The translations under genes were made by a program, and so were the position numbers. DNA of 53,266 nt, taken from assembly GCA_017505745.1 (NCBI GenBank), contig JAFVOP010000018.1, positions 1 to 53,266 on the forward strand. Reading direction: 5' to 3'. Source of the DNA: Clostridia bacterium. GTDB lineage: Bacteria; Bacillota; Clostridia; Oscillospirales; CAG-272. Positions 6,102 to 10,029 of this stretch are shown one piece after another. The notes beneath the pieces are model-generated. The model was not told the origin of the DNA and ran no database searches. It saw nothing but the letters and a program-made list of their open reading frames with translations. The stretch's first letter is position 1, and each line of letters begins with the position of its first letter.

Positions 6102-6968
6102 ATGAATTTATGTGACATCAAAACCGTAAAGCAGATCATGGCGATGTTCCACTTCACCTTTCGCAAGGAATTCGGCCAGAACTTTTTAACCGACCGCATG
6201 GTGGTGGAGGACATTGCCGACGCGTGCTGTATGGACGAGAACAGTACCGTTTTGGAGATTGGTCCCGGAATTGGCACGTTGACCTACGAGCTGGCACTCC
6301 GTCGCCGCCGGGTGGTCTCCTTGGAGATCGACCGCGGGCTGATCCCGGTTCTCGACTTCACGCTTGGTGAATTTGACAACGTGCGCGTGATCAACGAGGA
6401 CGTAATGCAAACCGATCTGGAAGCGCTCCTGGCTCCCTATTTTGCCGAGGGTCCGGTTTCGGTGTGCGCCAATCTTCCCTACTACATCACCACGCCGATT
6501 CTCATGAAGCTGCTCGAAAGTCGGCTCCCCTTCGACTATATCACGGTCATGATCCAAGCCGAAGTAGCCGACCGCCTCGCCGCCAAGGCCGGAAGCAAGG
6601 ATTACGGCGCGATCACTGCGGTGCTTGCCTACTACGGCGAGACCGAAAAGCTCTTTACCGTCCCTGCCGACCGCTTTGTGCCCGCGCCCAAGGTCAATTC
6701 CTCGGTCATCCGCATCAAGCTTTACAAGGAACGCCCCTATCATCCGCGGGACGAGGCCCTGCTCTTCCGCACCATCAAGGCGGCGTTCGGGCAGCGTCGG
6801 AAAACGCTGGTCAACGCCCTGGGCGCCGGCTTCCCGGAGCTTTCGCGCGAGCAGATCACGGATACCGTTACTGCCTGCGGCCACGATCTCAACGTCCGCG
6901 GCGAGCGCCTTGACATTGCGCAGTTTGTCGAACTGTCGGATCGGATTTATGAGATTTTAAAGAAATAA
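6102..6968 (+). CDS. rsmA: 16S rRNA (A1518/A1519) dimethyltransferase
   Basis: GQNFL, EIGPGIG, ANLPYYITTP, FGQRRKTL motifs. Confidence 0.97.
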   Translation: MNLCDIKTVKQIMAMFHFTFRKEFGQNFLTDRMVVEDIADACCMDENSTVLEIGPGIGTLTYELALRRRRVVSLEIDRGLIPVLDFTLGEFDNVRVINEDVMQTDLEALLAPYFAEGPVSVCANLPYYITTPILMKLLESRLPFDYITVMIQAEVADRLAAKAGSKDYGAITAVLAYYGETEKLFTVPADRFVPAPKVNSSVIRIKLYKERPYHPRDEALLFRTIKAAFGQRRKTLVNALGAGFPELSREQITDTVTACGHDLNVRGERLDIAQFVELSDRIYEILKK

Positions 6969-7076: not shown

Positions 7077-8336
7077 TTAAACCGATTTTTTTGCAAATTT
7101 TCGGATCAACACCACAAGGTAGTGCACCGCAAGTCCAACCGCGATGGCAACCACAAGGTCAAAAACAACGGTCAGAACAAAGGTAAGCACAAGCACCAGC
7201 GTGTCGGTGATCGGTGCCTTCTTGCAGATCGCCACAAAATGCCGCCACTCACTCATATTGTAAGCCACCATAAAGAGCACCGCGGCAATCACCGGCATGG
7301 GGATCCACGCGGCATACGGCATCAGCAAGACAAGCACAAACAGCAGCACCACGGCGTGTATCATCGCCGAAACGGGCGAGCGTCCGCCGTTTTTGACGTT
7401 TGCCGCCGTGCGCGCAATTGCCCCCGTTGCGGGGATTCCCCCAAAGAGTGCCGAGCAAATGTTACCTGTGCCCTGCGCAATCAGCTCGGTGTTGGAATCG
7501 TGCGTGTCATCGATCATGCGATCAGACACCACGCAGGAGAGCAACGACTCGATGGCCGCAAGGATCGCAATGGTAAACGCGTTGGGAATCAGTGTGATGA
7601 TTTTTTCTGCCTGAAAGGTTGGAAGCGAAAACGTAGGAAGCGACCGATCGATCGTATAAAGATCGCCAATGGTATTGACTCGAAGTTTGGCGAGAAGAAC
7701 CGCCGCCGTAAGAACGAACACCGCGATCAGCGAGCCGGGAATTTTTTTGCTGACGCGAGGCCAAACAATCAGAATGGCAAGCGCGACAAGACCGACAGCA
7801 AGTGCCAAGGGGTTGAGGGTGGTAATCGACGCGGCAATTGCTTCCAGCTTTTCCATGGACTCCACGGCGTGTGTACCGGGGGCAAAGGTCAGCCCGAGAA
7901 AATCCTTGATCTGACCGATGACAATGGTAACGGCGATCCCCGAGGTAAAGCCAACCGTTATGGTCTCGGGAATATATTTGATCAGCGAGCCAAGACGAAG
8001 TAATCCCATGATCGCCAAGATCGCGCCCGCCATCAGTGTTGCTATGGCAAGCCCGTCCACTCCGTGTTGGGCGACGATTCCGGCAACGATGGTGGCAAAG
8101 GCGGCGGTAGGCCCCGAAATATTCACGCGACTTCCGCCGAGAACCGCGATGACAAAGCCCGCAACGATCGCCGTGTACAGTCCTTTTTCGGGTGAGACTC
8201 CCGATGCGATTGCAAGCGCAATCGACAAAGGAAGCGCGATAATGGCTACAATCAGTCCCGCCACAAGATCGTTGACAAATTGTTTTTTCGAGTAGCTCTT
8301 ACATACCTCGAGCAACTTCGGTCTGAAAAATTTCAT
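7077..8336 (-). CDS. SulP/SLC26 family anion permease lacking the STAS domain
   Basis: DLVAGLIVAIIALPLSIALAIASG, GLYTAIVAG, ISGPT, ELIAQG, PATGAIART motifs; ends just after the last TM helix. Confidence 0.92.
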   Translation of the reverse strand: MKFFRPKLLEVCKSYSKKQFVNDLVAGLIVAIIALPLSIALAIASGVSPEKGLYTAIVAGFVIAVLGGSRVNISGPTAAFATIVAGIVAQHGVDGLAIATLMAGAILAIMGLLRLGSLIKYIPETITVGFTSGIAVTIVIGQIKDFLGLTFAPGTHAVESMEKLEAIAASITTLNPLALAVGLVALAILIVWPRVSKKIPGSLIAVFVLTAAVLLAKLRVNTIGDLYTIDRSLPTFSLPTFQAEKIITLIPNAFTIAILAAIESLLSCVVSDRMIDDTHDSNTELIAQGTGNICSALFGGIPATGAIARTAANVKNGGRSPVSAMIHAVVLLFVLVLLMPYAAWIPMPVIAAVLFMVAYNMSEWRHFVAICKKAPITDTLVLVLTFVLTVVFDLVVAIAVGLAVHYLVVLIRKFAKKSV

Positions 8337-8554
8337 AATACGTCCTTCTGTAAGTTGTCAAATTGGATGCCGACGTATATTATACACGCTTTTTCAAAAA
8401 AACTCAAGGACTTTTTTCGCTTTTTTCTATAATTTTTCGTACAAGCACACGGGTTGTCGACACGGCGTGCTTGCGAGCCTTTTCAGCGATGACTCGCGGT
8501 TCTTTTCAAAAATGACATCTATGTTCTTTTCCAAAAAAACCGAACACAATACTT

Positions 8555-8761
8555 CTCTTCCGCACGGTCAAGGCGGCGTTCGGGCAGCGTCGGAAAACGC
8601 TGGTCAACGCCCTGGGCGCCGGCTTCCCGGATCTTTCGCGCGAGCAGATCACATATACCGTTACCGCCTGCGGCCACGATCTCAACGTCCGCGGCGAGCG
8701 CCTCGACATTGCGCAGTTTGTGGAGCTTTCCAACCGAATTTGCAACACGTTGCAAGTATAA
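8555..8761 (+). pseudogene. rsmA: Duplicated 3' fragment of rsmA (alternative C-terminus)
   Basis: Collinear copy of 6762-6968 (offset 1793), open to a TAA at the equivalent position: LFRTVKAAFGQRRKTLVNALGAGFPDLSREQITYTVTACGHDLNVRGERLDIAQFVELSNRICNTLQV*. No start codon. Confidence 0.92.
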
Positions 8762-8808: not shown

Positions 8809-9318
8809 TTATTTTTGCAAGGCCTTTTCCGCTTCGATCTCTGCCATGAGCTCCTCATAGAGCCGATCAAGAGTCCCCCGTAGCGTTTGACCGTTGGATT
8901 CGTAGCAATAATCAAATGCGAGCACGCAGTCTCCCTCCACCTCCGAGGAAGGAAAAAACTCCATATCCGAGCTCAGGAAAAACGCGTTTATCAAATTGGC
9001 AAATTGTTTGGAACGAAATAAAAAGGAAGGCGCCGAAACCTCAAAGGAAAGTATTTGCAAAGGCTCGGACAACAATACGGTCAACCTTGCCCCGTAAGCC
9101 ATGGACATTGCAGCCAATACCCCTGCAAGCTGTAAAACGTCCCTTTTGTGTTTGGAAGAGAGCGTTTTCCAAAAAGCATGCTCCGAAAACGCCTTTAAAA
9201 GATTCGAATCCAAATACATTCTCTCATCGCGTAGCTTTCTATTCTCGGTTTCGGTGTATTCCGCATAATAGAGCGTGCAAATAGTCACATCCTGAAGTTC
9301 CCTGTCCGTTTTTTTCAT
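8809..9318 (-). CDS. Hypothetical protein
   Basis: 169-aa ORF with a GGAGG RBS, directly downstream of structured leader copy A; no motif recognised. Confidence 0.7.
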   Translation of the reverse strand: MKKTDRELQDVTICTLYYAEYTETENRKLRDERMYLDSNLLKAFSEHAFWKTLSSKHKRDVLQLAGVLAAMSMAYGARLTVLLSEPLQILSFEVSAPSFLFRSKQFANLINAFFLSSDMEFFPSSEVEGDCVLAFDYCYESNGQTLRGTLDRLYEELMAEIEAEKALQK

Positions 9319-9330
9319 TTACCCTCCAAA

Positions 9331-9553
9331 TACAAAAAAGTGCGCGCAACCGAAGTCACACGCACCGAAAAATGCATAGCCCCGATTGCTGCGACACAAT
9401 TTAACTTTTTTACACCATATCAACGACAAGCGTACAAAAAGGGAGCATACATTTTTACCGAAGTAAAAAATGTACACCAGTCGAGAATATGGACTCATAT
9501 TAAATTGTGTCGCATCCTTATTTTATCACAAAAAAAGAGATTTGTAAACACTT
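9331..9553 (-). ncRNA. Putative structured leader/attenuator RNA with its own promoter (copy A)
   Basis: Minus strand TTTACA-17-TAAAAT with extended TG; perfect 15-bp inverted repeat 9390-9404/9500-9514; internal TTTTAC-TTCG-GTAAAA hairpin; GTGCG...CGCAC-TTTTTT terminator. Confidence 0.6.
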
Positions 9554-9572
9554 GATTGCAAAAAATTCGGCA

Positions 9573-9626
9573 TTATTTTCTGAATCGAATATTCGTGCCT
9601 GAAACGAGAACATACATTCTATGCAT
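9573..9626 (-). CDS. Possible 17-aa peptide or gene remnant (MHRMYVLVSGTNIRFRK)
   Basis: AAGGGG RBS-like sequence at the same position after the copy-B terminator as the RBS of the 169-aa gene after copy A. Confidence 0.3.
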   Translation of the reverse strand: MHRMYVLVSGTNIRFRK

Positions 9627-9638
9627 CGCCCCTTTAAA

Positions 9639-9835
9639 TGCAAAAAAGTGCGCAGCCGAAGCCACGCACCGAAAAATGCATAGCCTCGATTGCTGCGACA
9701 CAACTTCGTCTTCCAAAAGGATAAGCGAATAAGAGGTTGCATTTTTACCGAAAGTAAAATTGCCACCTTTTGAAAGACATATTCGGTTGTGTCGCACCCT
9801 TATTCTATCACAAAAAAAGGAATTTGTAAACACTT
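9639..9835 (-). ncRNA. Putative structured leader/attenuator RNA with its own promoter (copy B)
   Basis: TTTACA-17-TAGAAT; 11-bp inverted repeat 9694-9704/9786-9796 with a compensatory change relative to copy A; inner stem GTCTTCCAAAAGG/CCTTTTGAAAGAC; same terminator type. Confidence 0.6.
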
Positions 9836-10029
9836 AACCGAAGAAATTTTTTGTAAATCCCTTAAAAAGATGTTTTTTCGCGAGAAAATTGCCAAATTCT
9901 ATTGCATTTTCGCGCGATTTGTTTTATAATATAGGATGACTTAAACTGCCGCGGAAAAATCCGTTGGCAAATATCTTATATTTCGTCCCCGCCGAAAAGC
10001 GACGGGAGACCTCAGGAGGAAACAGCATT

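Follow-up and report, generated by a model that had tools for sequence, protein, structure and literature searches.

Two homologous cassettes lie in tandem on the minus strand of positions 9331-9835 of the DNA studied here, and the analysis confirms that they belong to an extensive family of structured RNAs for which Rfam has no entry. The window, i.e., the whole stretch analysed, is the forward strand of contig JAFVOP010000018.1 from 1 to 53,266 (53,266 nt; assembly GCA_017505745.1, Clostridia bacterium, CAG-272). Each cassette leads from a promoter through a 5′-terminal stem and a conserved linker to an intrinsic terminator, and comparison of sequences across the family makes it probable that each one encodes a leader RNA of ~160-230 nt, close to its promoter, that attenuates transcription in cis.

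The upstream cassette, copy A, is preceded by a promoter at 9802-9830 (-) composed of a -35 box TTTACA, a 17-nt spacer and a TG-extended -10 box TAGAAT. Its RNA, measured from the first base of the stem to the end of the U-tract, spans 9642-9796 (-) within a covariance-model match of 141.8 bits at 9634-9801, and its transcription would start at ~9795. The 5′ strand of the 11-bp closing stem P1 occupies 9786-9796 (-) and has its partner at 9694-9704. Within the stem lies segment 2 (GGUAAAAAUGCA...CUC; 9733-9749, -), which pairs with segment 1 (9754-9760) or with the linker (9671-9693, -), whose sequence also complements the terminator's 5′ half. The intrinsic terminator of copy A (9642-9670, -) consists of a 10-pair stem (9670-9647) and a U-tract (9647-9642). 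The downstream cassette, copy B, repeats this plan, with a promoter of the form TTTACA-17-TG-TAAAAT at 9520-9548 (-), an RNA at 9334-9514 (-) that corresponds to a covariance-model match of 181.7 bits at 9328-9519, and a start of transcription that would fall at ~9513. Its P1 of 15 bp is 100% complementary (5′ strand at 9500-9514, -; partner at 9390-9404), segment 2 and its partner, the linker, are found at 9441-9459 (-) and 9367-9389 (-), and the terminator with its U-tract covers 9334-9366 (-), with a 12-pair stem (9366-9339) followed by a T-run. The two linkers are 95% identical across 44 nt, the stem interiors are divergent, and the cassettes form units of ~300 bp, each with a promoter of its own. 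Compared with dinucleotide shuffles, none of which (0/200) folds as well as the cassette RNAs, copy A reaches a minimum free energy (MFE) of -67 kcal/mol (z = -7.5) and copy B one of -67.4 kcal/mol (z = -6.3). All elements described in the initial annotation are thus present, from the extended-TG promoters (9830-9802 and 9548-9520) and the near-invariant linker to the two terminators of differing stem length, each with a T-run behind it. The T-A to C-G compensatory change that it reported in the stem is seen in the pairwise alignment of the copies, and its stem lengths of 15 and 11 bp hold; to be precise, the stem of 15 bp is that of copy B, which lies downstream and at lower coordinates. The interior hairpin that it singled out does exist, but only as one among several competing helices, and its 3′ arm is also a partner of the linker.

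Behind the terminator of copy B, as had also been noted, stand a ribosome-binding site (9327-9322) and an open reading frame (ORF) of 169 aa that runs from an ATG at 9318 to 8809 (8809-9327 in all, -). From its position in the sequence, this ORF is accessible only to RNA polymerase that reads past the terminator of copy B. Past the terminator of copy A lie a third, weaker promoter-like site (TTTGCA-17-TAGAAT; 9616-9644, -) and an SD-like AAAGGGG followed by a 17-codon ORF (9584-9634, -), which may together be what is left of a gene start after the duplication that produced the tandem pair. The surroundings also bear another repeat: the 3′ end (6759-6948) of an rsmA/ksgA-type 16S rRNA dimethylase gene (6102-6968, +) recurs with 92% identity at 8552-8741, and the two 3′ ends, 1.8 kb apart, flank a gene for a SulP-family permease (7077-8336, -). 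This arrangement suggests that an insertion or rearrangement has left its mark beside the RNA cassettes.

A covariance model (R1) built from six copies, after a DNA search, finds homologues at hundreds of places. The 2.34-Mb assembly from which the window derives holds seven sense copies on six contigs, and matches were obtained in 68 of 101 relatives, including 55 of the 60 genomes of the same genus. In samples that are draws and contain many incomplete metagenome-assembled genomes (MAGs), the model matched 54/151 genomes and 41/94 genera at the level of the order, and 41/151 genomes and 29/106 genera at the level of the class; at the level of the phylum (151 genomes), matches were confined to the own genome and one genome of the same class. 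The carriers are labelled as MAGs of uncultured gut and rumen Clostridia, with names that include Oscillospiraceae, Acutalibacteraceae, Ruminococcus, Monoglobus, Christensenellaceae and Faecousia. Among the matches listed for a family-specific 20-mer (80 loci), all are labelled as such MAGs and none as a cultured isolate. Copy number per genome reaches 16 in the class sample, and tandem pairs and triple arrays occur; two such triple arrays (G288:C6:111012-111688 and G350:C35:5316-5957) repeat at ~230-240 bp from start to start. In the own genome, another copy of the leader lies ~100 bp from the RNase P RNA gene (L008:1174-1526, contig C24), which is located upstream of it and diverges from it.

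The proposal that the family is undescribed has held up in all the searches made. When the whole window was scanned with Rfam 15 at the gathering threshold, only a tRNA and a T-box leader (RF00230; 32674-32916, -; 109.6 bits) were found and nothing at the cassettes, and the detection of this genuine T-box indicates that the scan works. At E ≤ 10, region 9200-10000 yielded noise only, the best score being 20.6 bits against thresholds of 50-100, and 20 other members of the family likewise had no match at the elements. Full-text searching of the literature found no description of such a family. A motif search of supplementary files of PMC8040213 gave 0 matches in the 7 files covered, and the family may still be listed among the thousands of candidates in that source.

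Alignment of the members reveals a uniform outer frame around a variable core. In 93 members, the promoter stands at a fixed distance from the stem: the first two positions of the -35 box are T at 95% and 91%, the extended TG is found at 92% and 90%, and the -10 box (T92 A91 T60 A88 A66 T90) ends 6 nt before the first base of the stem, so that the stem's conserved G would be the first transcribed base and the transcript would be fully paired from its very start. P1 is 95.7% paired among 92 distinct sequences and 96.3% paired among 100 distinct sequences, and changes on both sides are seen at 14/14 of its pairs in both alignments. The homologues and the covariation that the initial annotation proposed to look for are therefore both at hand, the controls on covariation being shufflings and permutations that leave the relatedness of the sequences uncorrected. 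The rod closed by P1 is variable and contains A-rich internal loops, and even copies of one genome are highly divergent in this interior. The members fall into two size classes of ~160-200 nt and ~205-235 nt (66 and 28 of 94, 70 and 30 of 100), the longer of which adds an extra hairpin. At the other end of the RNA, the terminator is 99.3% paired.

Between these two ends lies a set of helices that compete with each other. Segment 2 is a conserved A-rich/CUCC stretch at the tip of the rod that is complementary to the linker and covaries with it. In the first set of sequences, this helix is 95.3% paired, with compensatory changes at 9/15 pairs (U-A 32, C-G 30 and U-G 28 at an example pair); the corresponding values from an independent class-wide set are 95.1% and 93.7%, with compensatory changes at 10/15 pairs (G-C 40 and A-U 31 at an example pair), whereas slid controls reach 34-55%. 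The mean energy of the duplex is -16.5 kcal/mol for cognate partners, -13.4 kcal/mol for non-cognate partners and -6.2 kcal/mol with a shuffled linker. Segment 2 also has a local competitor, which differs between the size classes: members of the short class fold an AU-rich hairpin over the 5′ part of segment 2, those of the long class another hairpin over the 3′ part, and the short-class pairing scores only 72% over an alignment in which both classes are mixed. In either case segment 2 is left partly unpaired, as a CUCC tail in the short class, which is unpaired in most predicted folds, or as an A-rich loop in the long class, and this unpaired part could serve as a toehold for the linker. Because segment 2 is located at the end of a rod of ~30 bp, its pairing in cis with the linker needs the rod to be bent, and the conserved A-rich internal loops or a three-way junction could provide such a bend.

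The linker, for its part, has a second possible partner in the loop and 5′ half of the terminator, and the helix so formed is predicted both by MFE folding and by RNAalifold. The core of this putative antiterminator is 94.3% paired, and its energy is -14.1 kcal/mol for cognate against -12.0 kcal/mol for non-cognate partners, and -12.9 against -9.9 kcal/mol in the second set; in both sets, 0/2000 permutations were as low as the cognate value, with relatedness uncorrected. The helix is rich in G-U pairs and clean compensatory changes occur at 5/14 pairs and in few cells, for which reason it is rated as probable, though less secure than the other helices; one of its variable pairs also shows no avoidance of C-A mismatches. 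The three competing helices are of similar energy, about -14 to -16.5 kcal/mol.

The family is also coupled to start codons. Among the 69 elements with enough flanking sequence to be tested, 48 are followed, 8-58 nt past the match (mode 9-15 nt), by an SD and the start codon of an ORF that is ≥50 aa long, as compared with 165 of 1740 random positions in the same loci (9.5%). This SD-based test is the one used here, as a naive definition of the ORF inflates the null to 46% and an over-strict one gives 23/69 vs. 3.4%. In the class-wide set of 100 elements, 57 have a start codon within 60 nt, 23 have one at 61-400 nt and 20 have none, some of the latter sitting at contig ends; about 20-30% of elements have no start codon directly behind them. 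The gap between U-tract and SD is too short to accommodate another promoter, hence these genes must be reached by read-through.

The products of these genes are heterogeneous. In a first set of 30 downstream proteins, Pfam assigned seven to LRR_5 (BspA type), two to collagen repeats, two to HTH_3 and one each to MazE/AbrB, Arc/HicB, AMP-binding and YpsA, while 16 had no family. In a second set of 107, the assignments were Cu_amine_oxidN1 (10), LRR_5 (9), SLH (4), MazE/AbrB (4), SHOCT (4), RelB (2), SPFH (2), YpsA (2), several zinc ribbons, and single LiaF, TerB, RCC1, ricin-lectin, KAP NTPase and other proteins, with 57 lacking a family. The shared theme of this cargo is one of cell-surface, envelope and accessory genes and not of a metabolic pathway. 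A few small cargo families recur behind the leader in distant genomes (L153, L133, L155 and L134, L143); one of them is a protein of ~77-96 aa without a Pfam family, and another is an SPFH (Band_7_1) protein that is once fused to zinc ribbons. The 169-aa protein of the window has no Pfam family either. It has a paralogue of 32% identity on contig C16, likewise located behind a copy of the RNA, three close relatives, and eight matches among 1.84 billion representatives. Its AlphaFold model is of moderate confidence (pLDDT 73, pTM 0.72) and has no Foldseek match in the PDB at E ≤ 0.001, the weak, non-significant fold rows pointing to SpoIIAB/UsfX-type anti-sigma kinases (TM 0.4-0.56) and to secretion-chaperone or YbjN-like folds. 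This protein is an orphan and one of many cargo genes. The suggestion that the RNA could be its antitoxin or dedicated partner is not supported, since the family precedes well over 100 unrelated genes.

Taken together, the covarying pairing of linker and interior, the competing pairing of linker and terminator, and the coupling to start codons support the cis-attenuator layout that had been proposed for the cassettes. Two traits generic to attenuators are found: a promoter, a leader and a Rho-independent terminator stand upstream of the ribosome-binding site, and a conserved alternative helix, albeit one with few clean compensatory changes, competes with the terminator. Furthermore, local competitor, segment 2, linker, terminator 5′ half and terminator 3′ half form a chain of mutually exclusive pairings, which argues for an attenuator architecture. 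In the model that we favour, transcription would start at the first bases of the long 5′-terminal P1, which would close the variable rod, and the tip of the rod would display segment 2, either held locally by segment 1 or paired over a long range with the linker; by turning to the terminator's 5′ half and loop instead, the linker could form an antiterminator. On the one hand, pairing of segment 2 with the linker would leave the terminator free to form and the transcript would end as a short RNA. On the other hand, formation of the local hairpin would allow the linker to engage the 5′ half of the terminator, and RNA polymerase would read through into the gene, whose ribosome-binding site would follow only a few bases past the U-tract. 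The actual exchange of the helices, and which of the two states is the default, we infer. The balance could be shifted by a small ligand, by a protein or a further RNA, or through the kinetics of transcription; across the family, neither a conserved, pocket-like set of unpaired nucleotides nor a coherent metabolic gene context was found.

Attenuation in cis is compatible with another reading, which seems rather unlikely to be the whole account, namely that the terminated RNA of ~170-230 nt is itself the product, a stand-alone small RNA (sRNA) acting in trans. The tip of segment 2 (CU-rich/A-rich) or the linker would then pair with other RNAs, and read-through would be incidental. Consensus promoters and efficient-looking terminators in every copy would suit such a product, as would a presumably base-paired 5′ end and a 3′ terminator that would protect both extremities, the CUCC-containing tail left unpaired, and the copies, about 20-30%, with no start codon directly behind. 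The arrays of two or three independently promoted copies point the same way: arrangements of this kind are known from multi-copy sRNA families, and tandem copies with promoters of their own are a trait of independent sRNA genes more often than of riboswitches arranged in tandem. However, the orientation and spacing of the elements relative to ORFs are far from random (48/69 vs. 9.5%), and the complementarity of linker and terminator has no role in a pure sRNA. Moreover, no Hfq gene was found in the own genome (87% complete), and outside the elements the genome yielded no further site with complementarity to the conserved segments; those sites that a genome scan returned there for their resemblance to segment 2 or the linker show no element, and the three that were examined lie in GC-rich, coding-looking sequence.

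Less probable still, and conceivable if the antiterminator does not function, is a constitutive 5′ leader without any sensing, in which the rod would stabilise the mRNA against 5′ decay, a leaky terminator would set a low, fixed level of expression for accessory genes, and the long-range pairing would merely compact the RNA. 5′-terminal stems of this kind stabilise mRNAs in Firmicutes, and P1 is such a stem; the missing ligand-like conserved pocket, the heterogeneous gene content and the weak covariation of the antiterminator also fit. Against such a leader, the alignments show linker, segment 2 and terminator 5′ half changing in concert, with conservation of both alternative helices; the local competitor of segment 2 is retained in both size classes by means of different sequences, and the competing helices are balanced in energy. 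Very little credence, finally, is left for the idea that the cassettes are mobile or repeated DNA rather than functional RNA, such as MITE-like elements with terminal inverted repeats or repeated extragenic palindromes, a class that was considered and rejected. Their multiple copies, inverted repeat at the ends and intergenic positions would agree with it, but the repeat changes in a compensatory manner at 14/14 pairs and thereby preserves pairing rather than sequence, conservation reaches asymmetrically into the linker and terminator, the promoter is kept at a fixed distance and the elements in a fixed orientation towards the downstream gene, and the interiors are highly divergent between copies within one genome.

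Several established classes were also considered and set aside in favour of the attenuator model. The cassettes are not T-box leaders, as no match to RF00230 occurs at 9331-9835 although the same scan scored the genuine T-box. Type III toxin-antitoxin RNAs (ToxI-like) were rejected on the grounds that the units are ~300 bp long with a promoter of their own, that the 169-aa protein belongs to no Pfam family, and that the ToxN family is absent from the downstream proteins scanned (30 + 107). No reverse transcriptase family was found among these proteins, which speaks against a retron ncRNA. A leader peptide or type I toxin was dismissed as well: an ATG in the rod, which most members lack, opens 59 codons in copy B and 11 in copy A. 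As to ligands, c-di-GMP is unlikely. No GGDEF domain was found in the own genome (87% complete), a search whose control was positive in 8/14 genomes, and this argues against that ligand; the riboswitches RF01051 and RF01786 have no match in the genome, a weak observation given that the RF01051 control was positive nowhere. No ANTAR domain was found either, with a control that was positive nowhere.

The case for c-di-AMP was examined through the ydaO riboswitch (RF00379), which has no match in the window or in the own genome, where a DAC cyclase is present. Families of K+/osmolyte transporters number 0 among the 137 downstream proteins scanned. The RNA family and ydaO never coincide in the class sample (41 and 40 of 151 genomes, both in 0) or in the order sample (54 and 6 genomes, both in 0). 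The M-box control gives the same zero overlap in the class sample (family in 41 genomes, M-box in 29, both in 0 of 150 genomes scored), so that the pattern reflects a partition of lineages and is not evidence of functional replacement. With a non-overlap that is non-specific and no such transporter downstream, c-di-AMP finds no support. In these samples, Clostridia lineages with the family lack ydaO and M-box riboswitches, and vice versa, and a sharp divide in riboswitch repertoire seems to run through the class.

Structured orphan RNAs that are so widespread, multi-copy and strongly covarying are rare, and this one is carried by about a quarter to a third of the sampled Clostridia genomes without having an Rfam entry. 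It fronts surface genes (BspA-type LRR, Cu_amine_oxidN1, SLH and collagen-like) of abundant uncultured gut and rumen bacteria, together with many small regulators of the toxin-antitoxin type. One may speculate, and we do so tentatively, that it is a new class of regulatory RNA in which a terminator gated by a long-range pseudoknot between rod tip and expression platform responds to a signal and co-ordinates, in uncultured Clostridia of gut and rumen, an extensive and rapidly evolving regulon made up of surface and accessory genes. Such a pseudoknot-gated terminator would be a new design of RNA-based control and, were the RNA a sensor, its signal would reveal how surface display is controlled in the carriers. 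In a bolder variant, the terminated RNAs would pair in trans, via segment 2, with the nascent linkers of their own or paralogous copies, which would make the family a self-regulating RNA-RNA network. Even without any sensing, the covariance model is ready to annotate hundreds of intergenic regions in MAGs.

Set beside known systems, the family combines features that are otherwise encountered apart. Like ydaO (RF00379), it is a large pseudoknotted leader with a terminator in Firmicutes, yet it differs from ydaO in matching no such model in window or genome and in the lack of K+/osmolyte transporters among the 137 downstream genes scanned. Listeria LhrC1-5 and the streptococcal csRNAs are multi-copy, tandemly encoded Firmicute sRNAs. 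The family shares with them several copies per genome, tandem copies each with a promoter and a terminator, a CU-rich motif that could pair with ribosome-binding sites, and links to surface-protein genes. Those sRNAs are shorter and act in trans on distant mRNAs, whereas the present RNAs mostly stand directly before an ORF and possess an antiterminator-type alternative helix.

Cobalamin riboswitches rely on a regulatory kissing loop between aptamer and expression platform, and there too regulation is decided by a distal loop that contacts the expression platform over a long range. In the present family, which has no Rfam match, the contact is a helix of ~15 bp, the interior is variable where the riboswitch has a conserved aptamer, and the gene context is not cobalamin-related. 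The Bacillus pyr operon attenuators, bound by PyrR, and the expression platforms of riboswitches are the classical leaders with terminator, antiterminator and anti-antiterminator. Leaders of the pyr type resemble the cassettes in being promoter-proximal, in having an intrinsic terminator just before the ribosome-binding site and mutually exclusive helices, and in allowing termination when the 5′ strand of the antiterminator is sequestered. Unlike them, the family would use as anti-antiterminator a long-range pairing of the 5′-terminal rod tip with the linker, has no known protein-binding loop or aptamer, and occurs in multiple copies before unrelated genes, with tandem copies that each have a promoter. 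The rep mRNAs of pT181 and pIP501 are subject to attenuation mediated by antisense RNA, and in these, as would be the case here, termination hinges on the availability of a "pre-emptor" strand for pairing with the terminator's 5′ half. The competitor for that strand is a separate counter-transcript in pT181 and pIP501, whereas in the present family it would be segment 2, a covarying part of the same RNA.
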